A stretch of DNA of 64,000 nucleotides from an uncultured virus (IMG/VR IMGVR_UViG_3300008111_000060) (IMGVR_UViG_3300008111_000060); one strand, 5' to 3'. Counted from the first letter of the stretch, positions 3,145-52,113 are shown. The notes: generated by a model from the letters alone, not told the origin. Program-made: numbers and translations.

Positions 3145-3275
3145 TCCCGCAAATCGGAACCAAGCCACCACGAAGACGGGGGTAGGGCCCCCCGGTGAAG
3201 TGTGGCGGGGGCCGAATATAGACGCCCCATCACACTCTCTAGTTCACAAAAATTTCCAGGAAAAATTTTTTTTTT
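3145..3275. other. GC-rich island at the strand switch; candidate packaging or terminus signal
   Basis: G/C runs, a ggccccc/gggggcc inverted repeat and adjacent A/T tracts in an AT-rich genome. Confidence 0.45.
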
Positions 3276-12751: not shown

Positions 12752-12772
12752 AATAATTAAAAACCAACAACC

Positions 12773-12943
12773 ATGAGTGAACAAATTCAAATGCCCAAAG
12801 AAGAAGCTCTCAAGATTATTCAAAATGTTGCAGCAGCTTTTGTAGGTAATCTTAAAGATCACCAAGCAGTCCAAACAGCTTTAATAGTAATAGCTAAAGA
12901 GCTGGAAAAGACAAATGAAAAAACATTAGAAAAGGTAGATTAA
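12773..12943 (+). CDS. Small helical protein, 56 aa (MSEQIQMPKEEALKIIQNVAAAF...)
   Basis: Manually translated; AAACCAACAACC leader; terminator follows. Confidence 0.7.
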   Translation: MSEQIQMPKEEALKIIQNVAAAFVGNLKDHQAVQTALIVIAKELEKTNEKTLEKVD

Positions 12944-15060: not shown

Positions 15061-15894
15061 ATGTCAGTAACTTTTCAAGCACAAAATCACAAGTACCAGA
15101 GTCTTGATCCTAATGAAAATATAGATTGGATAAGTGTTACAACATTTATCTCTCAATTTAAACCTCAGTTTGATTCAAAAGCTGCAGCATTAAAAGCATC
15201 AGGAAATAAAAAATCTAAGTGGTATGGTTTATCTCCAGAAGTTATAGAAACTATATGGGAAAAAGAAGGTAAAAGAGCTACTGATTTAGGAACCTGGTAT
15301 CATAACCAAAGAGAAGAAGATACTCTAGGACACAATACTATTAATAGATCAGGACGTGATCTTTCAATAATAAGACCTATTTATGAAGGAGATTTAAAGA
15401 TAGCTCCAGATCAAAAGCTAGTAGAAGGAATTTATCCAGAGCATTTTGCTTATTTAAAATCTGCCGGTATCTGTGGCCAGTCTGATAGAGTAGAAGTAAT
15501 TAAAAATCTTGTAGATATATACGATTACAAAACCAACAAAGAAATAAAAACAGAAAGTTTTAAAAATTGGGAAGGTAAAAAAGAAAAGATGTTACACTGT
15601 TGTAGCCATCTAGACAATTGTAATTATAATCACTATGCTTTACAGTTGAGTGTGTATATGTATATAATATTAAAACACAATCCGCGATATAATCCTGGTA
15701 AAATTCAAATTCATCATATTATCTTTGAATCAGAATCAATTGATGAATATGGTTATCCTGTAGCAAAAAGAAATGATAAAGGAGAACCGATAGTAAAAGA
15801 CATTGTTCCATATGATTTACCTTATTTGAAAAAAGAAGTAATTGATATGATCAATTGGTTACATGATAATAGAAACAACTTAATTAAAAAATAG
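15061..15894 (+). CDS. PD-(D/E)XK nuclease (Cas4/RecB-like exonuclease family)
   Basis: SVTT, GTWYH, GICGQSD, IYDYKT and YALQLSVY motifs. Confidence 0.85.
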   Translation: MSVTFQAQNHKYQSLDPNENIDWISVTTFISQFKPQFDSKAAALKASGNKKSKWYGLSPEVIETIWEKEGKRATDLGTWYHNQREEDTLGHNTINRSGRDLSIIRPIYEGDLKIAPDQKLVEGIYPEHFAYLKSAGICGQSDRVEVIKNLVDIYDYKTNKEIKTESFKNWEGKKEKMLHCCSHLDNCNYNHYALQLSVYMYIILKHNPRYNPGKIQIHHIIFESESIDEYGYPVAKRNDKGEPIVKDIVPYDLPYLKKEVIDMINWLHDNRNNLIKK

Positions 15895-22025: not shown

Positions 22026-22062
22026 AGATTATTATAATTGTCAGTAACAAAAACCAACAAAT

Positions 22063-23346
22063 ATGGCAGATAACAACAACGGTACAACTACTGTTAGTAC
22101 AGTAGATGTAGCAGATTTAGACTCGATTTTAGGATCTCCCACAGGAGAAAGTGTGATGGTCCCAGATCAGGGTGGAAGCAAAGAAGTTAAAAAACCTAAC
22201 TTGTTTACTTCAAAACCAGTAGATATGACGTTCCTTGATAAGGATGATGATGACGATGATGACTCTAGTAGTTCTTCAGCAGCATCTACACAAGCAAGTG
22301 CTTCAACAACTACTACAAGTGGTGCACCGGCAAGTGATGATGACGATGATAAAAACATAGATGCATTATTATCACCCGATGGTTCTGATAAAGGTGGTCG
22401 TCCTAAGATGGATAAGAATGGTATGTTAGAGCTTGCTAAAAAGCTTATTGACCAAAAGAAACTTATTCCATTTGATGATGATAAACCTTTAGAAAAATAT
22501 ACTGTTCAAGATTTTGAAGAGTTATTTGAAGCAAACTTTGAAGAAAGAGAAAGAAAAGCAAGAGAAGAGATTCCTCTTGAGTTCTTTGATAGTTTGCCAG
22601 TAGAATTACAAGTTGCAGCAAAATATGTAGCTGATGGTGGTGCGGATTTAAAAGGCTTATTTAGAACCCTGGCCCAAGTAGAAGAGGTTAGACAATTAGA
22701 TCCTTCTGAAGATAATGATCAGGAGCAAATTGTTAGATCTTACTTGCACGCAACCCAATTTGGTACCGCTGAGGAAATCGAAGAGGAAATTACCAGTTGG
22801 AAAGACCGTGATGAGTTAGGTGCTAAAGCTAAGAAATTTAAACCAAAGTTGGATGCTATGCAAGAACAAGTTGTAGCTAGACAGTTAGCACAACAAGAGC
22901 AGATGCGTAAACAACAAGCCGCTCAAGCACAAATGTATATGAATAATGTGTATAAAGTCCTTGAACCTGCAGAAATTAACGGTATCAAGTTAGATAAAAA
23001 AACACAGAGTTTATTATACGCTGGACTAGTACAGCCTAATTATCCTTCTATATCAGGTAAGCCTACTAATATGTTAGGACACCTTTTAGAGAAGTATCAA
23101 TGGGTAGAACCTAGACACGATTTAATCGCCGAAGCTCTTTGGTTACTAGCTGATCCTGAATCATATAGAAACAAAGTAAGAGAAATAGGCAAAAAAGAAG
23201 CAACAGAGAAAACAGTTAGAATGTTAAAAACAGAAGAAAAAAATAAGATATCTTCTACAACATCTGATGATTTTGATCAGGATAACAAGAGACAGTCTTC
23301 TCAACAAAAGCTTCAAAGACCAAGTCAAAACTTTTTTAAACGATAA
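22063..23346 (+). CDS. Acidic scaffold-like protein upstream of the capsid gene
   Basis: Asp/Ser low-complexity N-terminus and helical C-terminus; lies between portal and MCP as in crAss-like capsid modules. Confidence 0.7.
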   Translation: MADNNNGTTTVSTVDVADLDSILGSPTGESVMVPDQGGSKEVKKPNLFTSKPVDMTFLDKDDDDDDDSSSSSAASTQASASTTTTSGAPASDDDDDKNIDALLSPDGSDKGGRPKMDKNGMLELAKKLIDQKKLIPFDDDKPLEKYTVQDFEELFEANFEERERKAREEIPLEFFDSLPVELQVAAKYVADGGADLKGLFRTLAQVEEVRQLDPSEDNDQEQIVRSYLHATQFGTAEEIEEEITSWKDRDELGAKAKKFKPKLDAMQEQVVARQLAQQEQMRKQQAAQAQMYMNNVYKVLEPAEINGIKLDKKTQSLLYAGLVQPNYPSISGKPTNMLGHLLEKYQWVEPRHDLIAEALWLLADPESYRNKVREIGKKEATEKTVRMLKTEEKNKISSTTSDDFDQDNKRQSSQQKLQRPSQNFFKR

Positions 23347-25110: not shown

Positions 25111-25149
25111 TCAAATGTCAGACAAATAAACCACCAAAAACCAACAAAA

Positions 25150-26175
25150 ATGAGTAAAACAAACATGACAATGGTAGAAATACCAACATTATCTGAAAAA
25201 GGTAAAATCACAATTAAGCCGTTCTTTGATCCTAATGTGGACAACCTAGGATTGCAAAACTATGGAATATCCCTTTTTGATGGAGTATTTCATGAAGAGC
25301 AATTAGCTTGTGTAGAAAACAATGGAGTTATAAGATACATTACTGGTCTTAATCCATTTGCTCCAGATGTTAAACTAATTCAAGATCCTGAAAAAAGGGA
25401 AGCTAGAATTAGTGAGATTAACAAAGTTGTAGCTAAACTGGAAGCAGAATTAGCAACAAATATTTTGGATCCTAAAGATCCAGATTTTTGGAACAAAGTA
25501 AAATTGTTATCTCCAAGTAATGAAAAATTCTGGAGTAGAATTACTGTAAGATGTGGTAATCAACCTGTGCCTCTAGATCCTGAAGCTAATGCTTATGATT
25601 TAATTAAGTTATATGCTATTGAAGCCGGAGGATTTTCTATTGTAGCTAAAAGCTATGAAGATGCTAGAAGTAGAGCCGTATCACCTAAGTTTTATTTAGA
25701 TAAAGCAATTACAACAATTGCTACTAAAACAGAAGTTAAAAAACTTAGAAACAAAGCATTGTCTGAGCTTGAAGCAATCTTTAAAAAGAATCCAAGCAAG
25801 CTTATGTATATTGCAAAAGTTGTTGATGGCAACAGTGCTCAATACAAAAAATCTACACCTCTAGATGTTATCTATGACAACATGGATAAATATATTACAG
25901 GTGAAGGTGTTGAAACTAATTTAAGAAGAGCAGCTGAAACTTTCTTAGAAGCTTGTGAACAAGATGTTGAAAGTCTTAAGTTAAGAGCTTTGGTTAAAGA
26001 TGCTAACTTCTATAAATTAATAGCCACAAAATCAGATGGTATGATTTATCATATGGCATCACAATCAATGATGGGTCGTAACTCATCAGAGTGTATTGAG
26101 TATTTAAAGAATCCTTTGAATGATAAGATCCTTGGAGAATTATTATCAAAAATAGAAAGTTATTGGAAAAAATAA
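25150..26175 (+). CDS. Conserved crAss-like protein following MCP
   Basis: 341-aa ORF in the capsid-module position, with an AAACCAACAA leader. Confidence 0.75.
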   Translation: MSKTNMTMVEIPTLSEKGKITIKPFFDPNVDNLGLQNYGISLFDGVFHEEQLACVENNGVIRYITGLNPFAPDVKLIQDPEKREARISEINKVVAKLEAELATNILDPKDPDFWNKVKLLSPSNEKFWSRITVRCGNQPVPLDPEANAYDLIKLYAIEAGGFSIVAKSYEDARSRAVSPKFYLDKAITTIATKTEVKKLRNKALSELEAIFKKNPSKLMYIAKVVDGNSAQYKKSTPLDVIYDNMDKYITGEGVETNLRRAAETFLEACEQDVESLKLRALVKDANFYKLIATKSDGMIYHMASQSMMGRNSSECIEYLKNPLNDKILGELLSKIESYWKK

Positions 26176-29865: not shown

Positions 29866-30417
29866 ATGGCAAGACACGTATTAAGTTTAGAGGTGCCGGA
29901 TACTATGAATAAAAGTATTCTGCGTATTATGGATACTAGCATCTATGCACCAAACTTAGATGTTAAGTGCCAATTATTGCAAGTTACTCTACCAGGATTT
30001 GCAGTTCCAGAAAATTTTGAATATCCTCAAATAGAGGAAGGATTTGCTTTAAATTTAACAGCTTGTGATTTTGGTGTTCAAACTACAGAGTGTGGAACTA
30101 ATTACTGGGATTTATCTGATGGAATCTATATTATAAAATATAGTGTTTCACCAAATGAATTAGTATATGTTGAATATAATCACTTGAGAATCACTCAAGC
30201 TCTTTGGAGATATAATAATTTACTATGTGAGATGGATTATCCTTCTTGTGAACCATCTGCAGAGATGAAAGATAAATTGAATAAGTTAAGATTAATAAAA
30301 ACTTATCTTGATGCGGCTAAAGCCAAAGTAGAATATTGTCATCAACCTGATAGAGGAATGATGCTTTATAACTACGCGATCAAGATGTTAGATAAATTAG
30401 ATTGTAAATCGTGTTAA
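29866..30417 (+). CDS. Putative tail ring/neck protein (start revised to MARHVL)
   Basis: LSDGIYIIKYSV motif; position in the structural module. Confidence 0.6.
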   Translation: MARHVLSLEVPDTMNKSILRIMDTSIYAPNLDVKCQLLQVTLPGFAVPENFEYPQIEEGFALNLTACDFGVQTTECGTNYWDLSDGIYIIKYSVSPNELVYVEYNHLRITQALWRYNNLLCEMDYPSCEPSAEMKDKLNKLRLIKTYLDAAKAKVEYCHQPDRGMMLYNYAIKMLDKLDCKSC

Positions 30418-30436
30418 ACCTTAAAAACCAACCAAT

Positions 30437-30640
30437 ATGATTTGTAACAATTGTAGAATGAAAATGGGCTGCGGCTGTAATAAGAGAACAGCTTCAGACG
30501 GAAAAAGCTGCTGTGCATCTTGCATTAATGCTTATGAATTACAACTTAAAGTGCTTAAAAATACTAATCCTAATCTACCAGGAAATAATACAATAGCACC
30601 ATCTAATGTATCATCAAGCGGTAGTATTTTTAAAAAATAA
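30437..30640 (+). CDS. Small Cys-rich (metallothionein-like) protein
   Basis: CNNC...GCGC...SCCASC. Confidence 0.7.
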   Translation: MICNNCRMKMGCGCNKRTASDGKSCCASCINAYELQLKVLKNTNPNLPGNNTIAPSNVSSSGSIFKK

Positions 30641-30646
30641 AGATTA

Positions 30647-33600
30647 ATGGCTAATTTCTTTTATAAAGTAACATTTGTATCTTGTTGTGATGGAACAGTT
30701 ATAGAACTTCAAATACAAACAAGTCAAGTTAATAGTTACCTAACAATAGGTAATACTTATCTTTATAATGGAGTTGAACCTTCTTTAATCAATGGTAAGT
30801 GTTATACTTATACTGTAAATACAGAAACAACAGTTAACGGATATACTACAGTTCCTCCTGTTGAAGATTTTACTTTACAAGATAATTGCCAAGATCCAGA
30901 ATGTCAAACCTGTAGTGGTGGAAATTGTGTTTGCCCTCCGGGTTATGAGCCTAATGAAGCAGGCGATGCTTGTGTTCAAACTGAAATAATACCAGCTATA
31001 CCACCTACAGAATTATTATTCTGTGGCAATAATGTTGGAACAGATCCTCAGTTTGGTATTGAGTATTTTGGTTCTCTTAATAATTATGTTTGGCCACTAT
31101 TAACAGTGCCTCAAAATAACAATTATGTTAGTACCACTAACATGACTCCTATTCCAAATTCTGGAAATAATTTGTTAACAGGAGATGCTTGGACAAGTAT
31201 TAGTCCTGCTGCTCAGATGAGTGGGGCTCATACTCCAATAATAAGTCCTGATTTTGCAAGACCCTATCCTAGTCCTAATCCTTTAGGATTACCTATAAAT
31301 TCTAGTCCTTCGGGATTAACAACTTCTTATCCTTATCCTTTATATCAAAGTACTATAACAAGTGGTGTATTGAATTATGGGCAAGGTCCTGAAGTAACTC
31401 CTATAGCATACACATCTTTTTTTCCGACTTTTCCACAGCCTTTTTCAACTTACTTTGGTCAAGGTTATTTAGGAAATAAAGGTGTATGGAATTATCAATT
31501 AGGTGTAAATGTTGAAAATCAATGGGCTGGATTTATAGCATGTTTAGAACCTGAAGTTGAAACTACTTATTTAATTACCGCGGTTGGTAATAATGGTATA
31601 AGAGTAATAATAGACGGAGTCCTTGCTGTAGAAATAATATCTGGTGATGGAGGAACACAGGCTTTAAATCTTATTAATACATATGAAATAACTTTACCTG
31701 CTGGTTTACATTCTATAAGACTAGAATGTTTTAATTACTCGGGTAGTGGTGGATTAGCTGCTGATATTTTTGAGTGTAGTTATTCTCAGTTTGCAGCAGT
31801 AACCACTTTAGCTCAACTAGAAGCTTTGGTTAGATTTTCTACTTTTTGGAAAAGAGCTAGAAATATGACAATTGCTTCTACCGGGTCTGATGTAGTAACT
31901 ATAAGCGGTGATGTTACAAAACCAAGTGATGTACAAGGTTACTTTGATTCAGCAGGTTTTCCAGCTAATGCTTTTGTTATAGAAGTGTTAGATTCTGTAA
32001 CTTATAGATTTAATCAAAATATTCCTGCTGGAGCATATACTGGTAAACTTAGATTTTTATTTACAGCATCTAGCGATCCTGATACAGCTTTTTCTTGTCC
32101 TGATGGATATGTATTAGGAACTTGTGATGGATTAATTTGTTATAAAACAACTGAAGTTCCTTGTCAAGAGTTTGATTATTATACTCTAAATGATTGTTGT
32201 ACAAATCTTCCATATGAGATTGAGGGAGAACCACTTGTCTTAAGATTTGATGGTGTTTGTTATGATATCGGATTATGTCCAGAAGATTTGATAAATCTTG
32301 TGATAACAAGTATATCTAATGAATCTGGTATAGATATAACAGGATGTTTAAAGTTAGTAGAGATAACAGATAATATACCTGAACAAACTGCTAATTTTTC
32401 TACTGTTATACAAGAAGTAGAAACCGTTCCTACTTGTGCAGAGTGTATTACAAATTATAGATTAGTATTTTGTGATCCTACAATTCCATCAATTGATACA
32501 TTTACAGATTTATCAACAGTTGTTGGTCAAAATATTCTTGTTGAAGTTAATGGTATACAAAGATGTGCTACTGTTGAACAAACTAATAATTGTGATAATC
32601 TAGTAGAAGTAATTACACAATTAGAAACATGTAGTTGTGAAAAATGTTATATTCTTACTAATTGTATAATAGAAGGTGTACCTCCAATCATTGTTACAAA
32701 TGATTTGGCACAATATGTAGGAGATACAATTTACTTGTGTGCAGATAACTTTCCGAGTAATCCAACACCTCCAGTAGACCCTGGTGTTCCTTTTTCTATT
32801 CCGGGAGATAGTCCAATATATAAAGGTAAACTAATAAACTGTTGTGATTCAACAGATATTAGATATGTAACTAATAATTTTCAAGGATACTTGTCAGTAG
32901 GTGTACTTGTTATACCTAATATAGATAGCCCATCAGGTGGTTCTACAAAATGTTGGATTTATGAAAAAACTGATGAGCAAAGTCAACCTTATTATTTTGC
33001 GGATTTAACAGGAGCTAAATACTATCAAAATTGCACAGTTTGTAATCAGCAAAATCCTTGTACTATTTATCCTGAAATAGGAGAATGTTATTGCTATGAA
33101 GTACAAGAATCAGAAACTTGTGATGGTGCTTTAACATTAACCTTACCAGCAATAATAGAATCTTTTGATGATTGTTTAGAGTGTAAAACTCAAAAAATAC
33201 CAGAGTGCTATTTAATAGTTGATTGTGAAGATAATCAAAACACTTTACTAATTCAAAATGATTTATCTGCTTATGTAGGTAAAGTAATTAAGATACAATA
33301 TTGTGATACTTGTTGGACAGTTTTACCTCCTATACAAAATTGTAATGGTTCAATACAAACAACAATTGTTGCTTCTTTTGATACTTGTGTAGAATGTTTA
33401 CCTCCTCCTCCAGAACCTGAATCTAAGTTAATTCCTAGAAGAATACCTCCAGGATATACAACACCTGGATGTCCTCCAGAGTATACTGAGAAAGTAAACT
33501 GTGCTTTTGCTAAACAAGCTTTAGATAAGATGTCTTCTATTAGATATGGTATTAATAGTTGTTGTGAAGAAGACTTTGATTCTCAAGATATTAAAAAAAG

Positions 33601-33871
33601 ATTATTAGATTTAAAAGCTATTAACACAGCTACATCAGAGTTGTTACCTTTAATTTGTAAATGTTATAGATTACAAGTAACATCGGGTAATGTAGAATTT
33701 AAATATATTTCTTGCGATGGGCAATTAACTTATGTAACTTTGGGAGAAGATGAAGATTTGAGTTTACTAAAAGTGTGTGCTCAAACTTATCCTAGACCAG
33801 TTTGTCCAGAAGCAGGAGTTGTTTATAGCGTTATTGTTGAGAATAATTGTGTTAATGGAACTTGTTTATAA
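30647..33871 (+). CDS. Large Cys-rich repeat protein with a PA14-like domain (putative tail hub/fibre)
   Basis: Repeated Y.L..C...DLS.YVG..I...C..V...C..C modules; PA14-like NNGIRVIIDG...ITLPAGLHSIRLE. Confidence 0.75.
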   Translation: MANFFYKVTFVSCCDGTVIELQIQTSQVNSYLTIGNTYLYNGVEPSLINGKCYTYTVNTETTVNGYTTVPPVEDFTLQDNCQDPECQTCSGGNCVCPPGYEPNEAGDACVQTEIIPAIPPTELLFCGNNVGTDPQFGIEYFGSLNNYVWPLLTVPQNNNYVSTTNMTPIPNSGNNLLTGDAWTSISPAAQMSGAHTPIISPDFARPYPSPNPLGLPINSSPSGLTTSYPYPLYQSTITSGVLNYGQGPEVTPIAYTSFFPTFPQPFSTYFGQGYLGNKGVWNYQLGVNVENQWAGFIACLEPEVETTYLITAVGNNGIRVIIDGVLAVEIISGDGGTQALNLINTYEITLPAGLHSIRLECFNYSGSGGLAADIFECSYSQFAAVTTLAQLEALVRFSTFWKRARNMTIASTGSDVVTISGDVTKPSDVQGYFDSAGFPANAFVIEVLDSVTYRFNQNIPAGAYTGKLRFLFTASSDPDTAFSCPDGYVLGTCDGLICYKTTEVPCQEFDYYTLNDCCTNLPYEIEGEPLVLRFDGVCYDIGLCPEDLINLVITSISNESGIDITGCLKLVEITDNIPEQTANFSTVIQEVETVPTCAECITNYRLVFCDPTIPSIDTFTDLSTVVGQNILVEVNGIQRCATVEQTNNCDNLVEVITQLETCSCEKCYILTNCIIEGVPPIIVTNDLAQYVGDTIYLCADNFPSNPTPPVDPGVPFSIPGDSPIYKGKLINCCDSTDIRYVTNNFQGYLSVGVLVIPNIDSPSGGSTKCWIYEKTDEQSQPYYFADLTGAKYYQNCTVCNQQNPCTIYPEIGECYCYEVQESETCDGALTLTLPAIIESFDDCLECKTQKIPECYLIVDCEDNQNTLLIQNDLSAYVGKVIKIQYCDTCWTVLPPIQNCNGSIQTTIVASFDTCVECLPPPPEPESKLIPRRIPPGYTTPGCPPEYTEKVNCAFAKQALDKMSSIRYGINSCCEEDFDSQDIKKRLLDLKAINTATSELLPLICKCYRLQVTSGNVEFKYISCDGQLTYVTLGEDEDLSLLKVCAQTYPRPVCPEAGVVYSVIVENNCVNGTCL

Positions 33872-33891
33872 TATTAAAATTTAAATAAAAG

Positions 33892-35364
33892 ATGAAACCT
33901 TTAAATGCTGATAACCCATCTTGTAATCCAATATCATCAAATTGTGTGATATGGCAAGGTCCAGATATACCTTGTATTTCCTTATGTAAAGGGGATAGTA
34001 TATCACTTGTTGTTTACAAGTTAGCTACAGAACTTTGTACTTTACTTGAGCAAACAAATGTTGATAATTATGATCTTGAATGTTTAAATACAGGTTGTGG
34101 TCCAAGCAATTTTCAACAATTAATACAAATATTAATTGATAAGATTTGTAATTGCTGTGATGGCGGAGTTACTCCTACTCCATCAACAAATAAGGAACTT
34201 GATGAAGAAGTAGTTATTGCACCTTGTTTCCAATATACTAATGGAACAGGTGATCTTGTTACAACAATGACTGTTTTAGATTATGTTCTTGCTATAGGAA
34301 ATAAGGTGTGTAATCTAGTAAGTCAAATTACTACAATAAATTCTATATTAGCTCAATACAATATTAGAATTGAAGCATTAGAAAATGCGCCGCCTCCTAC
34401 TTTTACATTACCATCTGTTCTACCAGGTTGTTTAATAAGTCCTAGTAATGTAGGTGTACCTATGAATATTGCTTTACAAGAGTTGATTACTCAATTCTGT
34501 TTATTGCAAGGTGCAACAGGTTTACCTATAGATATATTAAATTCAATTACTTTTCAGTGTCCTGATTTAACTAATCAGCCTCAGTTAAGTAACTCTGCTA
34601 GTTCTATGGGTAGCCTAGTAGGTTGGAATTCTACAGTAGAAAACTTATCTGATTCAATCACAAACATGTGGTTAACAATCTGTGATATAAGAGCTGCTGT
34701 GAATAATATTCAACAAACTTGTTGTCCTAGTGGATGTGAAGGTGTTAGTGTTATTCTAGATGGATATGTTACTGGTACAGATTTACACTTAGTAGTAACT
34801 GGATCTATTCCTTCAGGATTAGTTCAGTGTGCTCCTGGTACAACTACCTTTACTATATCTGATCAAAGCGGTAATACAATTACTAGAACTGGTGATGTAG
34901 TTACTAACTTAAATAATCCAACAGGATTAGTATATAACTTAACAGGAACAGGTATTAATACTGCAGATAACTTAAATATTACAGCTACCTTATGTTTAAA
35001 TAGTACATCTGGAGCAACTGTAACATGTCAAAGTATTCTACAAGTTACTGTGTTTAATAATGCTCTTTGTCCTACTTTAACACTTAGTCCAAGTAGTACA
35101 TCAATAGGATATACAGGATCTGTTGTAGCAGGAACAGCTACTTATGTTGTTCAATTGTGGGATGAGTTTGGTTTAGTATTGATTGCATCTACTACTTTAT
35201 CAGGTTCATTTACTGGATTAACTCCAAATACAACCTATAGAGTAAGAGTATTAGTTATACCAGCTGCAGGTGAGCAATATAATTGTCCTCCTACTTTAGT
35301 AACAACTATACCATCATTGTGTTTAGCACCAATTAATGTATCATCAGAAATAATAATACCATAA
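33892..35364 (+). CDS. Cys-rich structural protein with a C-terminal FN3-like domain
   Basis: SSNCVIWQGPDIPC; FTGLTPNTTYRVRV. Confidence 0.75.
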   Translation: MKPLNADNPSCNPISSNCVIWQGPDIPCISLCKGDSISLVVYKLATELCTLLEQTNVDNYDLECLNTGCGPSNFQQLIQILIDKICNCCDGGVTPTPSTNKELDEEVVIAPCFQYTNGTGDLVTTMTVLDYVLAIGNKVCNLVSQITTINSILAQYNIRIEALENAPPPTFTLPSVLPGCLISPSNVGVPMNIALQELITQFCLLQGATGLPIDILNSITFQCPDLTNQPQLSNSASSMGSLVGWNSTVENLSDSITNMWLTICDIRAAVNNIQQTCCPSGCEGVSVILDGYVTGTDLHLVVTGSIPSGLVQCAPGTTTFTISDQSGNTITRTGDVVTNLNNPTGLVYNLTGTGINTADNLNITATLCLNSTSGATVTCQSILQVTVFNNALCPTLTLSPSSTSIGYTGSVVAGTATYVVQLWDEFGLVLIASTTLSGSFTGLTPNTTYRVRVLVIPAAGEQYNCPPTLVTTIPSLCLAPINVSSEIIIP

Positions 35365-35365
35365 A

Positions 35366-35974
35366 ATGAGCTGTAAAACTTGTAAATGTAAAACAACACC
35401 ATGCGGATGCGAGGATCAAGGTTTAACCACTCCTCCATCTTGTGGTAGTATAAATTGTCCTGAACCAGAACCTTGTGCAGAAATCTTTAGTGATTGTTGT
35501 ATTGTTCATAGTGGGGATAGTTATGCTTATATAGATGCTGAGATTCCTACAGAGCAACCTCAAGGTAATGAAATAGCACCTCAGTATATTGAACCACCTT
35601 CGGTAAAACCACCTTTTATTGTAAATCAAAATGAGAGACTTTGTGATTTTTTTCAAAGATATCTTGCTTATAATAATTGTGATAGTTTTACTAATGATCA
35701 AATTCCTTATGGTTTACATTCTAATATTATAGCTTCTACTAGTATAAATATTGGTTGGACAGCAGGAATAGCAGTTGAGAGTTATGATATCTACTATGCA
35801 CCTGTTAGTACTGGTGTATTTGTAGCAGCTGGATCTGTTGGTCCAAGCACTACTCCTAATGCAACTATTACAGGCTTAACTCCTAACACAGAATATTATG
35901 TTTGTGTAAGAAGTTATATTGAAGGTGAACCTAGTTGTTTATCGGTTTCTCTAATAATAAAAACTAAATTATAA
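35366..35974 (+). CDS. Cys-rich protein with an FN3 domain
   Basis: CKTCKC..PCGC; STSINIGW...YDIYY...ITGLTPNTEYYVCVRS. Confidence 0.78.
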   Translation: MSCKTCKCKTTPCGCEDQGLTTPPSCGSINCPEPEPCAEIFSDCCIVHSGDSYAYIDAEIPTEQPQGNEIAPQYIEPPSVKPPFIVNQNERLCDFFQRYLAYNNCDSFTNDQIPYGLHSNIIASTSINIGWTAGIAVESYDIYYAPVSTGVFVAAGSVGPSTTPNATITGLTPNTEYYVCVRSYIEGEPSCLSVSLIIKTKL

Positions 35975-35978
35975 AATA

Positions 35979-37202
35979 ATGATAGCCACACTTAGTATAA
36001 CATTTACTCCACAAACTAGTATAAATCATAGAGTTTGTTGGAAAGAAACAACAGATAGTTTATATGATTGTTCTACCATTGCAACAAGTTGTATAGCAGG
36101 AATACCAAAAACAGTTACTATAAGTGTTACTGTTTTTAATGAATCATGTGATCCAATTGTTTATGAAGGATATGTTCAACCTGTTTGTGAACCAGAAGCA
36201 TCTTTACTTGCTAGAACTTCTTTTCCAAATATAACTTTTACACCTGATAATCCTTGTTTATTCTGGCAAGCAACATGTGCTCCCGGAGTAGAAGAGGTTG
36301 ATGTAATTGATCAAGGATCTGGTTATACTCCAGGTTCTACAATAAATCCTACAATAACGGGAGATGGCGCTGGAGCTGCTGCAACTTGTTATGTTACAGA
36401 TGGAACACTTGCTGCAGGATTTCCTTTAACAATTACAAATCCGGGAAGCGGATACAATGATGGCTTTTACACTTTTGTGCATGTTACAAATGTTTCTTCT
36501 TCGGGTGTTAATGCTAGATTAGAAGTTCAAGTTACAGGAGGAGTAGTTGTAAGTGCTATTAGATATCAAAATAATGGTGGTACAGGATATGCTCCTGGCG
36601 ATACTATAAGTATTGATAATACTACAGGTGGTATGGGTGGAGTAGGTTCTGGTGCAGTATTTACACTTGATGCTTCTACTGTTTTAAGTGGTACAATTGA
36701 TTATTGCAATGTTACTGCTTCTGGTTCTGGTTATATTACAGTAGGTTATACTATTAGCGGTAATGCTATTTTAGATGTTGTATTAACAGATTGTGATGAT
36801 ACTTATGTATTTGGTGTAGATTGTGATGGTAACACAGTACTACCATATGCTACAAATTTTAGTGCAAAACTTATACCTGGACAAATAATTAATATGTGTC
36901 ATTCCCAATCATTACCTGATCCTGTTCCAGATGTGAAGAATACTTGGTCAGTAGAACAAAGAGAAGATCTTTGCTGCTATGATTGTGAGCAAGTTAATTT
37001 AACACTTGCATTAGGAAATTATGGAACATATAACTATTCTTATATTCGTTGTTCAGATTTACAAACAGTGCAAGATTCTTTAATATATGATGGAGTAGAA
37101 GTACCTGTTCCACCTATTGAGATTGTGTGTTATGTTAAAGGAAGCTTACTAACACATCCTGATATAAACATTATAGGCCCTGTAGCTTGTGCAGTAATAT
37201 AA
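35979..37202 (+). CDS. Cys-containing structural protein with GSGY/GTGY repeats
   Basis: DQGSGY, NPGSGY, GGTGY and SGSGY units. Confidence 0.75.
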   Translation: MIATLSITFTPQTSINHRVCWKETTDSLYDCSTIATSCIAGIPKTVTISVTVFNESCDPIVYEGYVQPVCEPEASLLARTSFPNITFTPDNPCLFWQATCAPGVEEVDVIDQGSGYTPGSTINPTITGDGAGAAATCYVTDGTLAAGFPLTITNPGSGYNDGFYTFVHVTNVSSSGVNARLEVQVTGGVVVSAIRYQNNGGTGYAPGDTISIDNTTGGMGGVGSGAVFTLDASTVLSGTIDYCNVTASGSGYITVGYTISGNAILDVVLTDCDDTYVFGVDCDGNTVLPYATNFSAKLIPGQIINMCHSQSLPDPVPDVKNTWSVEQREDLCCYDCEQVNLTLALGNYGTYNYSYIRCSDLQTVQDSLIYDGVEVPVPPIEIVCYVKGSLLTHPDINIIGPVACAVI

Positions 37203-37208
37203 AAAATT

Positions 37209-37237
37209 GTCATGGTTTGGTTGGTTTCCACTGTGAC
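37209..37237 (+). ncRNA. Hairpin whose loop is antisense to late-gene leaders
   Basis: GTCATGG-TTTGGTTGGTTTCCA-CTGTGAC; reverse complement contains AAACCAACCAAACCATG. Confidence 0.4.
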
Positions 37238-37243
37238 TGGCAG

Positions 37244-37278
37244 GCAAGAAAGGCTCAGGTAACTGGGCCTTTTGCTTT
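37244..37278 (+). terminator. Intrinsic terminator, GTAA loop
   Basis: aaaggctcag-gtaa-ctgggccttt-tgcttt. Confidence 0.75.
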
Positions 37279-37336
37279 AAAATGATTATTTTTAAAAAGT
37301 AAAAAATATTAGTATATTAACGGTAATTTATTTAGT

Positions 37337-37915
37337 ATGAAAGTTTTCAAAGGACCGGATAAAAAAGCACCTAGATATAGACAAAGTTCTCTATCAATTT
37401 TAAATGAAGATTTGTATAATAAATATAAGTTAAAAAATCCTCATTCTAAGATTGATAATGAAAAGTTTAAAGCTATTATAGGTTCTTTTAATCAAAAACT
37501 TAGAGAAGCTGTTGTAGAAAATAGAGACGGAGTAGAATTACCTGAAGGATTAGGTTATGTTTTTCTTGGTTCTTGTAAATCTCCTAAGAAAGAAAACTTA
37601 GATTATAAAAAGTCAACAGAGCTTGGCCAATTTGTTTTAAAAAGAAATTTGAATTCTGATGGATATTTAGCTAAAATATTTTACACAAACTACGCAAGTA
37701 AATATAACTTTGCAAATAAAAAACTTTGGGCGTTTAAAGGGGCGCGAGAATTTACTAATGCTGTTTCAAAAGCTTATGCTGAGAACTGGCCAAAGTATAT
37801 TGTTGTTGAAGATTATCAGTTGGTATCTTCACTATTTAGACAAAGTACTAAAAGTTTTATTGTTAAAAAAGGAACACCAATACCAGATAATTATAACGAA
37901 TTTGATTTAGATTAA
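37337..37915 (+). CDS. IHF-like protein of the crAss-like tail module
   Basis: GVELPEGLGYVFL; position before the tail ring genes. Confidence 0.6.
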   Translation: MKVFKGPDKKAPRYRQSSLSILNEDLYNKYKLKNPHSKIDNEKFKAIIGSFNQKLREAVVENRDGVELPEGLGYVFLGSCKSPKKENLDYKKSTELGQFVLKRNLNSDGYLAKIFYTNYASKYNFANKKLWAFKGAREFTNAVSKAYAENWPKYIVVEDYQLVSSLFRQSTKSFIVKKGTPIPDNYNEFDLD

Positions 37916-37916
37916 C

Positions 37917-38588
37917 ATGACAACAATAGGCGATAGCATATCACGAGTACGCAATGTTTTAAAATCTGTAAAGGAAGATCCTTTCTTAACAGATAGATTT
38001 ATTGCTAGTGTAATATACAAATATGCAAAACTCTTAATTAAGAGACAAGATGATATAAATAAGATAATGAAGTTTCAAAGCTTATTTGAAGTATTACCTT
38101 GTCTTGAATTAATCGAGGTAGATAAAGTAGAAGCTTGTTGTGGTGGTATTAAATCTAATTGCATAATTAAGCGTACAAAAGATAAGTTGCCTGAGATACT
38201 AGAAAGTAACTTTGGACCAATCATAAGAAGCGTGACATCTATTGATGGAAGTGTAATTATGATTAGAACACAGCCAAGTACTTTTGTGTCAATGGAAAAG
38301 ACAAAAAACTTTAAATACAACAAAGAAAAATATTACTGGTATATGCAACAACATTTATATTTTCCTAATATAGAATGGGATGCTATAAGAGTTGAAGCTT
38401 TATGGGAAGGTAATCTGGATGCATATAAATGTGATACTGCAGGAGAGTGTAATGTGTATCAAGATAATCAAATTAGAATACCAGAATATTTATTTGCTGA
38501 AGTAGAGCAGATGACACTAAAAGAGTTATTAACTTTGGGTCAAGTACCTAGTGATGGTCCTGATGATAATCAAAATATACTTAGATAA
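37917..38588 (+). CDS. Tail ring/tubular protein
   Basis: Gene order; Cys cluster (EACCG...C.IKRT), YYWY...HLYF. Confidence 0.65.
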   Translation: MTTIGDSISRVRNVLKSVKEDPFLTDRFIASVIYKYAKLLIKRQDDINKIMKFQSLFEVLPCLELIEVDKVEACCGGIKSNCIIKRTKDKLPEILESNFGPIIRSVTSIDGSVIMIRTQPSTFVSMEKTKNFKYNKEKYYWYMQQHLYFPNIEWDAIRVEALWEGNLDAYKCDTAGECNVYQDNQIRIPEYLFAEVEQMTLKELLTLGQVPSDGPDDNQNILR

Positions 38589-39640
38589 TGAGCTACAATT
38601 ATACCTTAAAATATAGAACCTTTGATCAATTACTAGATGAAGTATTTGTAGATTTTCAAAACTACAATCTTCAGAATATGATCGAGCCTCATCAATTAAT
38701 CAAAGTTGCTAAAAGAGTTAACTATGATTTAGGCTTAAGAATCTTCATGACTAAGCAAGCTGTTTTAGAAGTAGAGAAAGGTAAAGCAAAATTACCAGAT
38801 GATTTCTTTGTTTTAAACTTTGCTCTTGTTTGTGATGAATACGAAGTACATGAAGCTATGCCTCAAGGTACTTGGATAGAAGATAGACCATTGATTACTC
38901 CTTACAAATCTACACCGGCATCTGTTGATTTTTGTGCAACACCAACTGTTAATTGTAGTAAGTGTTCTCCTCAGCCATGTGGTTGTAATGGAGCTCCGCT
39001 ACCTTCGTCAGCTTATGCAAGTGAAGCAACTTACAATCCAACAGAGCCTTATGGTAATTATTGTAATAAACCAAGAGTTTATTTAAATTGTAAAGGAGAA
39101 GCTTATGAACTAGTACAGATTGTAAATACACAATCAAGAATATATAAAAGATTATTTCCAATTAAGATAGTTAACAATGCAGCCAATGTAGATTGTGATT
39201 GTCCTAATCTTAATTTCTATGCTCCAGATACAGCTTGGATTAAAGATAATTTTATTTACACATCTTTTGACTGTGGTAGTTTATATATCAATTATCAAGG
39301 TATGCTAGAAGATGATGACGGCAATCTTCTTGTTCCTGATCATGATATGCTTAATGAGTATTACGAGTATGCTTTAAAACAAAGAATACTAGAAAATCTT
39401 ATTATGAATGATGAGATTACAGCTGGACAAAAACTACAATTAATAGAAAATAGATACAGGGCTGCGAGAAATCAAGCTCTTTCAATTGTTAATACTCCTA
39501 ACTTTGCAGAGATGAAACAGTTGTGGGAACTTAATAGAACAGCTCAGTATTCTAAATACTATGATATGTTTAAGAGTTTACCTTATGGTAGACCACGTTA
39601 TGGATTAAACCCTGGACCAACAATACCAAGACTTGGATAA
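38588..39640 (+). CDS. Tail tubular/ring protein with a Cys-rich insert
   Basis: KAKLPDDF, IYTSFDCGSLYINY, DDDGNLLVPD; lies immediately before the tail stabilisation gene. Confidence 0.7.
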   Translation: MSYNYTLKYRTFDQLLDEVFVDFQNYNLQNMIEPHQLIKVAKRVNYDLGLRIFMTKQAVLEVEKGKAKLPDDFFVLNFALVCDEYEVHEAMPQGTWIEDRPLITPYKSTPASVDFCATPTVNCSKCSPQPCGCNGAPLPSSAYASEATYNPTEPYGNYCNKPRVYLNCKGEAYELVQIVNTQSRIYKRLFPIKIVNNAANVDCDCPNLNFYAPDTAWIKDNFIYTSFDCGSLYINYQGMLEDDDGNLLVPDHDMLNEYYEYALKQRILENLIMNDEITAGQKLQLIENRYRAARNQALSIVNTPNFAEMKQLWELNRTAQYSKYYDMFKSLPYGRPRYGLNPGPTIPRLG

Positions 39641-49638: not shown

Positions 49639-52113
49639 ATGACAGCAGCAGAAAGATTAGCTTATGTAGGTTTACCAGATACTCCTGAAGGCAGAGAAAC
49701 ATTCTATGATATGTTTGATGATGAATCAAAGTGGGATGATTTTTATTCTCAAGAAATGGCTAGAGGTGGAACAACCTCTACATACATGTTTCCTCAAGCT
49801 TTTTACCAGGATGGCGGAGCTACTGATGGCATAGCTTATCCTCAACAACCTACTTCACAGTATATGTTTGAAGGAGCTTCTTGGTATCCTAGTTATAAAG
49901 AACATGGTGGTATTGCTTATCCACAGCAACCTACTGCTGATGTATTTTTTAGTGCAAATCCTTGGCAACCCCACTATGAAGAAGGTGGTCAGTATGGAGG
50001 ATCTGCTTCACCACTAGGCTATGGTCAGATGCCACCTGTTATGGATTTTGGAGGTATGTCTAAAGGAGATAAGAAAACATTTCTTAAAAGCTTTGTAGAC
50101 AACTACATGAAATATGCTTATGGAGGTAATGCTTCTCAGATGGAAGCTGATACAGATCCTATTAACTATCCTGAAAAGATTAGAAATAACTTTGTTAGTA
50201 AGTTACAAAAAAATGCTACTATATCAAGAGCAGAAGATGAAGGTAAGGCTATCTTAAATAATCTAATGCAAAACAACCAAGTTGAGCCAATGGCTTTTAA
50301 CTATGGTGGAGGTATGGATTATGATTGGGATTCTATGAGAAATCCTAATGCTCAAGCTCAAGCTGATATGTATAATAACATGGCAGATGAATATGAAAAT
50401 CAAGCTATGAATTCTACACAACAAGCTGGTCAAAATTTATTTGATATTGGCAAACAGTTTATGAATAATAGAAATGCTATCAATGCTCAGACAGAAGCTG
50501 CAAAAAACTTTGCTGCTTCCACAATGACAGGAGCTGAAGCAGCTCGTGGTGGTAGCTTTAATGTACCTAGATTTGATCCAGGTGGAGGATTTAGTAAAAA
50601 TATAGGACCTGATCCAGGTAACTTATTTAAAAAATCAACACCTATATTTTTCCCTAATGCGGGTGCTCCTGCAGCTCCAGCAGCAAAGGTTGATCCATAT
50701 GCTGGTTTAAATCAAGCTCAAATACTAAGAAAACAATTAGAAGAAAAATATCCTACTAGTAATACTGGTCAACAAAATCAGTCATATGATTTAGCACAAC
50801 TACTAGGTCAATACTTTGGAACAAATCCTAATCAATCAGGAAGATATGTTTTTGCTCCAACCTTTGGTGATCCTTTTGATTATAAAGGTAGAAACCAATA
50901 TGGTAAGTTTAGATTAAGAAGCTATGGTCCAGGAATATTTAATCCAAATGCTGGTAATGTTTATGGAACTGCTTCACAAAATACAGGTAATTTTAATTTT
51001 GGTAATATGTCTAAGATGGATCCTAATCAATTAGCTGCTGCTCAACAGTATCTTAAAGATAAAGGAATTAGTCTTGAATATTCACAACAAAATAGAAAGT
51101 TTTTTAATAAACTTTTAGGACCAAAAAGTTTTAGTTTAAAATATAATATAGGTAATTCAAGTACTGGAACTACTCAACCTGGAGCTGCACCAACTACTCC
51201 TGTTGCCCCAGCTGAAGCAAAAAAACCAGGATTCTTTGATAGGATGAAAGAGAAGAATCAAGCTAGAAAAGCTACTAAAGAAGCTGCTAGATATGAAGAG
51301 TTTAAAAAGAATAATCCAGTTTATCCTAATGAAAAAACACCAACAGGTGCACCGGTTATATCACCATTAGATCAATCTAATGCGTTGCCAAATGCTAATA
51401 GTAATTCAAATTGGTCAATGATGGAAAAACCTGGATTAGTATTAGATCCTAATTCACCTGGCTCAAGTGGACCTGTTATGTCTCCAATGCAAAGAGCTAA
51501 TGCGTTACCAGCAGGTACACAAAGCGTTCCTTACACACCTAGACCTACAATAAATCCTAATGATTCTACACCAACGGGTCCTGTAATGGAACCTCTTGAT
51601 CAATCTGGTGCTGTATTTAATTATGGTGGTTATTACTTACCAAAAGCTGTAGGTGGATTTGATAATAGTAATTTAATTACTAAAGATGTAGGATTTCAGT
51701 ATGATCAAAATCTTAATCCTTTTACAGGTGTAGGTCAAAAAGTTATGAAATCTATGCCTAGTATAATGCAAGCAACAACAAATTTAGTTAATTATCATAG
51801 AATAGGAAAAGGATTAGAAGATCAAGCTTTTGCTAAAACATCTGCTGATGCTAATTACTTTGCTGATAATCGTGTTAATAAAGGATCCAAAATGATTGAT
51901 CCTTATAATGCGGCAAGTTTAGATGATCCATATCAAACAGGTTTCCAATTACATGATCAAGGAAGAGCTTTCCAAAATAGCAACATAAAGGATAGCAGAT
52001 ATGGTGGAAACTTATATCCTGATGGCGGCCAAGTAGGAGATATAATGTATTTGTCTGATGAAGATGTAGCAAGATTTATGGCAGAAGGTGGAACAATAGA
52101 ATTTTTAGATTAA
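49639..52113 (+). CDS. Low-complexity cargo protein rich in xxGG motifs
   Basis: Gly/Asn/Gln/Met-rich with internal repeats; position among the ejected-protein genes. Confidence 0.75.
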   Translation: MTAAERLAYVGLPDTPEGRETFYDMFDDESKWDDFYSQEMARGGTTSTYMFPQAFYQDGGATDGIAYPQQPTSQYMFEGASWYPSYKEHGGIAYPQQPTADVFFSANPWQPHYEEGGQYGGSASPLGYGQMPPVMDFGGMSKGDKKTFLKSFVDNYMKYAYGGNASQMEADTDPINYPEKIRNNFVSKLQKNATISRAEDEGKAILNNLMQNNQVEPMAFNYGGGMDYDWDSMRNPNAQAQADMYNNMADEYENQAMNSTQQAGQNLFDIGKQFMNNRNAINAQTEAAKNFAASTMTGAEAARGGSFNVPRFDPGGGFSKNIGPDPGNLFKKSTPIFFPNAGAPAAPAAKVDPYAGLNQAQILRKQLEEKYPTSNTGQQNQSYDLAQLLGQYFGTNPNQSGRYVFAPTFGDPFDYKGRNQYGKFRLRSYGPGIFNPNAGNVYGTASQNTGNFNFGNMSKMDPNQLAAAQQYLKDKGISLEYSQQNRKFFNKLLGPKSFSLKYNIGNSSTGTTQPGAAPTTPVAPAEAKKPGFFDRMKEKNQARKATKEAARYEEFKKNNPVYPNEKTPTGAPVISPLDQSNALPNANSNSNWSMMEKPGLVLDPNSPGSSGPVMSPMQRANALPAGTQSVPYTPRPTINPNDSTPTGPVMEPLDQSGAVFNYGGYYLPKAVGGFDNSNLITKDVGFQYDQNLNPFTGVGQKVMKSMPSIMQATTNLVNYHRIGKGLEDQAFAKTSADANYFADNRVNKGSKMIDPYNAASLDDPYQTGFQLHDQGRAFQNSNIKDSRYGGNLYPDGGQVGDIMYLSDEDVARFMAEGGTIEFLD

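Follow-up and report, generated by a model that had tools for sequence, protein, structure and literature searches.

Behind the last gene of a tail-fibre operon in an uncultured phage, a short hairpin stands directly before a transcription terminator, and the reverse complement of its loop recurs just ahead of the start codons of several head and tail genes. This raises the question of whether the hairpin is read as RNA and, if so, whether those start sites are what it reads. A sequence-only reading of the locus had proposed a 3'-derived small RNA that pairs in trans with several initiation regions and had named the leader of a small antisense gene as the alternative. The window, by which we mean the whole stretch of 64,000 nt that was analysed, has a base composition of 33% G+C and, according to its map of open reading frames (ORFs), carries nearly all of its genes on the plus strand from about 3.2 kb onwards. 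PHROG matches mark the large terminase (16968), the portal (19174) and the major head protein (23377), together with tail- or baseplate-like proteins and, from 39640 on, giant virion proteins. The read runs linked to the stretch carry the label lake-water metagenome; no RNA run was listed for 30300-37500, and three metatranscriptome runs contained next to none of its sequence words. A near-identical complete record, G002 (120,123 bp, with direct terminal repeats), served as a stand-in for whole-genome questions. As judged from one virion protein with about 29% identity, the nearest cultured relatives are the Cellulophaga phages phi17:2 and phi4:1 and the FpV4-type Flavobacterium phages; since phages of Cellulophaga and Flavobacterium are the closest cultured kin, the host is most likely a member of the Flavobacteriia. 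A blastn search with positions 36000-38600 against cultured phages gave no match.

The last gene of the tail-fibre/baseplate block codes for a protein of 407 aa (35979..37202, plus strand; in the ORF list, with PHROG matches to virion structural protein and to baseplate wedge). Its TAA stop codon lies at 37200-37202, and 6 nt further on begins a stem-loop (37209..37237, plus strand), which is predicted by RNAfold and has, among relatives, a conserved core and a co-varying stem. The predicted stem is 8 bp long, includes two G·U pairs and joins GTCATGGT (37209-37216) to ACTGTGAC (37230-37237) around a loop of 13 nt, TTGGTTGGTTTCC, with a GTTGGT core at 37220-37225. The sequence at 37209-37227 is GTCATGGTTTGGTTGGTTT, whose reverse complement, AAACCAACCAAACCATGAC, was found once in the window, while the loop stretch TTGGTTGGTTT (37217..37227, plus strand) has its exact reverse complement, AAACCAACCAA, at 30425-30435. 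We also considered whether the loop might join the AACAA linker that follows it in an H-type pseudoknot and dropped this idea because the linker is not conserved.

The fold bears out the sequence-only reading in placing this hairpin directly ahead of a terminator. A predicted intrinsic terminator occupies 37242..37279 on the plus strand, where its fold shows a GC-rich hairpin with a U-tract and where relatives have a terminator at the same place. Its core stem, GGCTCAG / CTGGGCC (37252-37258 / 37263-37269), closes a GTAA loop, and an A-rich stretch 5' of the core pairs with the U-tract TTTTGCTTT, so that the predicted structure has the stem-loop (37252-37269) followed by a U-tract that characterises intrinsic (Rho-independent) terminators. 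The site 37242-37279 was absent from the list returned by a simple terminator scan of the window. In RNAfold, the 96 nt from 37195 to 37290 reach -28.7 kcal/mol (z -3.5), which none of 200 shuffles equalled; the hairpin taken alone is modest (-8.9 kcal/mol, z -1.74, with 15 of 200 shuffles equally good). The hairpin is an uncatalogued RNA motif: Rfam 15 yielded no match in the entire window at gathering thresholds, and the best match within 36900-37500 (E=0.13) was far under gathering and concerned the terminator part only.

Beyond the terminator, the next operon (ATG at 37337) is preceded by a promoter-like stretch (37291..37320, plus strand), which was picked out by a site scan at 37291-37318 and by a conserved block, and which consists of TTTAAA-16-TATATT plus the conserved TAGTATATTAA (37310-37320). 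A block resembling TAGTATATTAA is kept in the alignment of relatives, in which the GTATATT motif also occurs 5' of the gene for a 427-aa protein, and 37291-37320 is probably the promoter of the next operon. A promoter-like motif of the form (T)TTG..GTATATT(A/T) stands after the terminator and before several late operons, about 25-35 nt from the ATG (at 37310-37320, upstream of 22063, 12773 and 49639, and in relatives L197-L215). Upstream of the hairpin we saw no conserved promoter among relatives, because the upstream genes are non-homologous among them.

We took the virion-protein gene 37917-38588, two genes downstream, as bait for related loci and obtained 161 tblastn-confirmed IMG/VR relatives, from which 80 loci with 47-100% identity were kept. 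The hairpin and terminator follow the last tail-block gene in 76 of these 80 loci; the exceptions are two loci that have no upstream DNA (L061, L062) and two without a hairpin within 3 kb (L069, L081). The element starts 5-20 nt past the stop codon in relatives, and the terminator comes about 5-12 nt after the hairpin. The gene at the position of ORF 35979-37202 varies between relatives, and the element 3' of it is kept; where the relationship is more distant, an additional gene of about 420 codons comes between the element and the downstream operon. The element is also present in five more near-complete or complete genomes (G003-G007), and it is single-copy: the complete 120,123 bp of G002 contain one TTGGTT-loop hairpin with a terminator after it. 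Among cultured phages, Cellulophaga phage phi17:2 has the same hairpin and terminator at 51313-51425 of its record (L092/L095), between the genes for tail-fibre gp047 and virion protein gp046. In Cellulophaga phage phi14:2 (Crassvirales), none of the four TTGGTTT sites in the late-strand structural module, among seven on the reverse strand, lies in a hairpin followed by a terminator, and in the 24.6 kb examined of Flavobacterium phage FpV4 the element was not found.

Across relatives the loop is U/G-rich and 11-13 nt long, with the consensus (U)UUGUUGGUUU(U), also given as UUUGUUGGUUU. None of the 38 distinct copies departs from GTTGGT, and their stems vary, with 5' arms such as GTCATGG, GTTACAG, GTCGCAG, GTTGAAG, AAATGG, GTTTAG and ACATATGT, each of which has its own matching 3' arm. 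Because loop lengths differ, the stems were out of register in the MAFFT alignments A3 and A4, and arm-to-arm duplex energies and a covariance model were used instead. Over 48 distinct elements, the duplex of an element's own 5' and 3' arms has a mean energy of -9.6 kcal/mol, compared with -5.3 kcal/mol when arms are combined with those of other genomes. The covariance-model alignment has 83.3% paired cells, where shuffles have 53.8%, and its co-variation score of 0.729 compares with 0.208 in shuffles (0/500; slid controls at most 0.22); all eight of the eight stem pairs show two-sided changes. These figures are indicative in that the alignment is fitted to the structure and includes about 10 false matches on leaders. 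The covariance model R1, built from seven copies, was too short for sensitivity, so that the window's own variant was missed at E<=1, and it also matched tagged leaders on the opposite strand. The conservation and co-variation that the sequence-only reading had named as a check are thus present, and the element is evidently not a chance feature.

Such a stem would be expected of any structural hairpin, and a location directly before the terminator, 5-20 nt past the stop codon, would suit one that passively aids termination or keeps exonucleases off the 3' end of the tail-fibre mRNA and has no sequence-specific partner. A passive hairpin has no need, however, of an 11-nt loop that stays invariant among relatives with just 47-72% protein identity, nor would it explain why the element is single-copy and other operon ends do without it, and we regard this explanation as improbable.

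The two strands of the element are not equivalent. In 40 of the 48 distinct elements the plus strand is stabler than the minus strand (Wilcoxon 1.5e-7), an advantage that arises from G·U pairs, and this points to a hairpin that acts as a structure of the plus-strand transcript. The strand preference also bears on the alternative that the minus-strand motif is the ordinary leader of a small antisense gene. The 27-codon ORF (MTIFYITAQ...) that had been put forward in this role does exist in the ORF list; the minus-strand sequence at this place in the window, AAACCAAC...ATGAC, has the spacing of a leader and recurs in some close relatives. Yet a suitably placed minus-strand ATG is found in only 16 of 48 distinct elements, and the ORFs that follow it, of 1-62 codons, are unrelated to one another, are not conserved and overlap non-homologous upstream genes. 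As the stem favours the plus strand and the region is a one-directional gene block, we give an antisense gene next to no credence.

What the loop mirrors is a motif at start codons. Translation initiation in Bacteroidota and their phages proceeds without Shine-Dalgarno (SD) pairing. In the window, AAACCAAC lies exactly 4 nt ahead of an ATG at 12761, 22051, 25138 and 30425, the four leaders that the sequence-only reading had matched to the reverse complement of the loop; these matches hold, including the exact one of 11 nt at 30425. The expected number of AAACCAAC copies in the window is 2.4; the observed number, 11, was reached by 0 of 100 shuffles. The motif, which we call the tag, takes the form AAAACCAA(C/U), extended AAAACCAA(C/U)AAA, and stands at about -13 to -3 from the ATG of some head and tail genes. 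On the plus strand of the window, tag and ATG are found as AAACCAACCAAT (30425..30439) before a small Cys-rich ORF of 67 aa (30437-30640), as AAACCAACAAAA (25138..25152) before a 341-aa gene located 3' of the one for the major head protein, as AAACCAACAAAT (22051..22065) before the 427-aa gene, which lies between the portal and major head protein genes, and as AAACCAACAACC (12761..12775) before a 56-aa ORF (12773-12943) that is also tagged in G002. The tag at 30425 fills a 19-nt gap after a 183-aa gene and belongs to the same gene block as the hairpin.

Homologues of these genes keep the motif. AACCAA is present in 12 of 12 distinct leaders of the 427-aa gene family and in 44 of 47 of the 341-aa gene family, frequently at both -17 and -8, and the tag is found in most of the 37 distinct leaders of the small Cys-rich ORF family. 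Counted over 72 non-redundant loci with 1012 predicted genes, 14.7% of plus-strand AACCAA falls within 25 nt before starts (1.9% of the sequence; 77/1012 genes), and control hexamers, the non-overlapping A4C2 permutations, place 1.5-4% in the same 25-nt zones. The motif is real, a start-site tag that is conserved and specific to these phages. Five late-strand genes of G002 are preceded by the AAACCAAC form, and the early genes carry a different repeat, TAACCAATTAA; the AACCAA that had been noted in early leaders is indeed there but belongs to this separate repeat.

The early-gene repeat, composed of AATAACCCC, T7-8, ACNA and TAACCAATTAA, precedes early minus-strand genes about 13-16 nt before the ATG (102-112, 982-992, 1499-1509 and 2521-2531, plus flanks, minus strand) and resembles a promoter or operator repeat for early genes. 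A GC-rich stretch at about 3150-3260, which lies where the early and late blocks diverge, contains G/C runs (for example GGGGGTAGGGCCCCCCGG), with no tRNA and no Rfam match in it. In G002, the exonuclease-like gene that corresponds to 15061-15894 of the window has a tagged leader, AAACCAACTCAAACACCAACTCAAA; the window at 15520-15549 reads AAATCAAC, and another AAACCAAC lies within the coding region of this gene.

All four tagged leaders of the window have A at -3, -6, -12 and -13. These are the positions at which A favours initiation in Flavobacterium johnsoniae, where the frequencies of C and G are indifferent (PMC6847099). The CC of the tag would therefore not be a general requirement of the host. 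The available portion of the phage-S21 paper (PMC9723584) contains neither the word 'motif' nor the further leader terms that were looked for.

The tagged small ORF at 30437 adjoins a variable part of the late region. The Cys-rich proteins of this family have 42-72 residues with the pattern M.C.NC...L.CGCQ.R.ASDG..C..C, and their genes always lie between the 183-aa-type gene and a large tail-fibre gene, sitting in a 16-25-nt gap after the former; searches against Pfam and PHROG returned no match for the family. From this small ORF to the hairpin, the region 30647-37202 is hypervariable in L006-L084, with one to seven genes, many MSC..C starts and conserved flanks, and it is predicted to be a receptor-binding cassette that can be swapped, with the tag at one border and its mirror at the other.

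That the motif (30425) and its inverse (37217) flank the hypervariable tail-fibre block is what a DNA-level element would lead one to expect, namely an inverted 11-bp motif that is used by a DNA-binding protein, in a promoter or as the boundary for recombination of the variable tail-fibre cassette, with the stem forming in single-stranded DNA, in which G·T pairs form too. A co-varying stem is, however, unnecessary for double-stranded recognition, and the fixed distance from tag to ATG, the frequent tandem copies and the intercistronic gaps of 19-23 nt fit a signal in mRNA; we consider a DNA-level element very improbable. One particular version, in which the inverted motif would flank an invertible tail-fibre cassette, was excluded because all genes of the block point one way.

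A further reading is an RNA element whose loop would pair with the tag, and the match between loop and tag bears on it. Over its full conserved length the loop shows Watson-Crick complementarity to the tag (consensus UUUGUUGGUUU against tag AAACCAACAAA). Perfect complementarity to the loop over 8 nt or more is seen at nine plus-strand sites of the window; four of these lie directly before start codons, and the sole plus-strand match of at least 9 nt is that of 11 nt at 30425. Among 37 distinct genomes, the loop can form 6-13 contiguous Watson-Crick pairs (mean 9.4) with the leader of the small ORF, and in nine genomes 7-12 contiguous pairs with the leader of the 341-aa gene. The base that faces the invariant loop G is C or U, both of which can pair with it, in 50 of 64 distinct tagged leaders (78%), compared with 43% pyrimidine after AACCAA elsewhere. 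A change at clade level is seen in phi17:2, where the loop, UUUUUGGUUUUU, has U in place of the loop G and the leaders are AAAACCAAAAA (gp065, 11 nt), which belongs to the positional counterpart of the 341-aa gene, and AAAACCAAA (gp047); on the late strand of this phage, leaders make up only 2 of the 11 sites with at least 9 nt of complementarity. In the lineage of the window an extra loop G faces a C of the 30425 leader, giving one compensatory pair.

Lineage-specific co-variation between loop and leader was not found: in a permutation test over 37 distinct genomes, with the window itself left out, the run of a genome's own leader averaged 9.38 nt as against 9.51 nt for leaders of other genomes (p=0.89). 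Since loop and leaders do not co-vary at the level of lineages, their match rests on two conserved consensus sequences and is in essence one evolutionary observation. A or G faces the G of the GUUGGU loop in 14 of the 64 leaders, yet this loop G is invariant, and in G003-G007 the leader of the 341-aa gene, AAACCAAAC, is complementary over 7-8 nt only, which suggests that the loop may be constrained by something besides these leaders. Pairing energies over 51 leaders, another check that had been named for the small-RNA claim, gave a divided answer: plain duplex energy was unselective, without enrichment of leaders (10 of 51 at or below -12 kcal/mol, compared with 462 of 2937 genome-wide windows), and once intramolecular structure was included the four tagged leaders ranked 2, 6, 7 and 9 of 51. 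Some distant relatives (L050, L077, G003-G005) also keep the hairpin, and the 10 kb examined in them show no tagged gene.

Several of these observations would sit well with a hairpin that binds a protein or the polymerase, its loop being an operator for an RNA-binding protein of phage or host or acting directly on RNA polymerase and its complementarity to leaders being incidental; variants include a boxB/nut- or put-like signal for read-through past the adjacent terminator into the virion-protein/giant-protein operon and a stability site at the mRNA 3' end. The element always precedes, by a few nt, the intrinsic terminator that marks an operon boundary, its core is invariant in 38 of 38 copies even where the facing leader base varies, loop and leaders show no lineage-specific co-variation, and the element persists in relatives in which no nearby tagged gene was seen. 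Such a binding site leaves unexplained, however, why the loop consensus, over all of its 11 nt, exactly complements the leader tag that these phages conserve best and why a pyrimidine is preferred opposite the loop G. Moreover, a conserved promoter-like motif belongs to the downstream operon itself, which makes read-through unnecessary; there is no overlap of hairpin and terminator such as attenuator-type antiterminators have; and no candidate binding protein was identified. We hold a binding hairpin to be possible but rather unlikely.

Comparison with the lambda nut/boxB and HK022 put sites, which are antitermination RNA signals, shows likenesses and differences. Like them, the element is a small phage hairpin of the nascent transcript with a conserved loop and a variable stem, upstream of a terminator at an operon junction. 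Unlike them, it abuts the terminator instead of lying far upstream of it, and its loop complements leaders, which nut sites do not. No boxA or N-like protein was identified, and the relatives' alignment has no conserved linear box other than the loop. The available part of a preprint on phi14:2 transcription describes sigma-70-like middle promoters and no such hairpin element, and a listing of papers on crAss-like phages and RNA brought up nothing relevant.

Taking together the co-varying plus-strand stem, the invariant loop, the single copy, the position at the 3' end and the full-length complementarity, we find that pairing with the tagged starts is the best explanation. We therefore return to a 3'-UTR RNA element whose loop would pair with, and mask, the SD-less initiation sites of the tagged genes, a proposal to which we assign about an even chance of being right. 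Relative to the earlier claim of a small RNA that pairs in trans, what stands is a conserved, structured plus-strand element that shares the operon's terminator and has a loop complementary to a conserved phage-specific tag; lineage co-variation and selective plain duplex energies were not found.

The closest parallels are bacterial base-pairing small RNAs that derive from 3' UTRs, of the CpxQ, SroC and DapZ type. In both cases the element lies in the 3' untranslated end of a protein-coding operon and shares its intrinsic terminator (here with the stop codon at 37200-37202, the hairpin from 37209 and the terminator to 37279), and a short conserved seed complements the initiation regions of several other genes (here a conserved loop complementary to tagged leaders in three gene families). 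Unlike RNAs of that type, which have their seed in a single-stranded 5' stretch, the phage element presents it in a hairpin loop; it is also phage-encoded, its targets are an SD-less, A-rich tag that contains CC, and the processed RNA is a candidate. Hfq-type seed presentation is not known from the Bacteroidota, the phylum of the probable host. The Staphylococcus aureus RNAs RNAIII and Rsa are hairpin-loop regulators that carry UCCC loops directed against the Shine-Dalgarno sequence, and they resemble the phage element in having a short conserved loop complementary to the ribosome-loading regions of many mRNAs, on a co-varying stem beside a terminator. The phage loop differs in being U/G-rich and mirroring an SD-less leader of Bacteroidota type, and it is a single, phage-encoded loop with no promoter of its own. 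In the icaR mRNA of S. aureus, the 3' UTR reportedly pairs with the message's own ribosome-binding region. The phage likewise has an anti-initiation-site motif in a 3' UTR and a tagged gene, 30437, in the gene block of the hairpin, and differs from icaR in that the tagged cistron is internal (the second gene) and about 6.8 kb upstream, that more tagged genes belong to other operons and that the target is not a Shine-Dalgarno sequence.

In mechanistic terms, the mRNA of the tail-fibre operon would end in the hairpin and terminator, which would form a cis-encoded element in its 3' untranslated end, and a stable 3' fragment of about 65-75 nt could outlast the message. The loop would pair with the tag and thereby cover the adenines at -3, -6, -12 and -13 needed for SD-less initiation, so that translation of the tagged genes would be tuned, and most likely lowered, once the tail-fibre operon is transcribed. 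Genes 29866-37202 are packed with gaps of 1-20 nt, and the tagged ORF 30437 is the second of them; as this ORF is in the same tightly packed block, the element could pair in cis, within one long mRNA, with the start of the small Cys-rich ORF. The messages of the head genes 22063 and 25150 and of the small ORF 12773 would need a 3' fragment acting in trans. Since the hairpin begins 6 nt past the stop codon, a terminating ribosome, given its known footprint, would overlap the 5' arm, and folding of the hairpin could be coupled to translation of the last gene.

A more far-reaching proposal, which we offer tentatively and as rather less probable than not, is that these Bacteroidota phages use a private translation code. 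In a host phylum indifferent to SD sequences, AAAACCAAY, frequently as tandem copies, would be the tag of a small regulon of head and tail genes, and it would be read by one master anti-tag RNA whose production requires transcription to run through the whole tail-fibre operon. The anti-tag RNA might then act as a timer or as a switch for the stoichiometry of head and tail synthesis, and, being within reach of the terminating ribosome, its activity could depend on translation of the last tail-fibre gene.

Very little is known of how SD-less initiation is controlled gene by gene in Bacteroidota and their phages. The tag and the single-copy loop that mirrors it recur throughout a large clade of uncultured phages, both freshwater and marine, and in at least one Cellulophaga phage that has been cultured. 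The element is directly testable in an existing phage-host pair, Cellulophaga baltica with phi17:2. If the pairing is true, tag and anti-tag would offer a portable pair for gene control in Flavobacteriia, and the phages would show clearly that SD-less initiation sites can be under riboregulation, in the form of a phage-internal post-transcriptional regulon.
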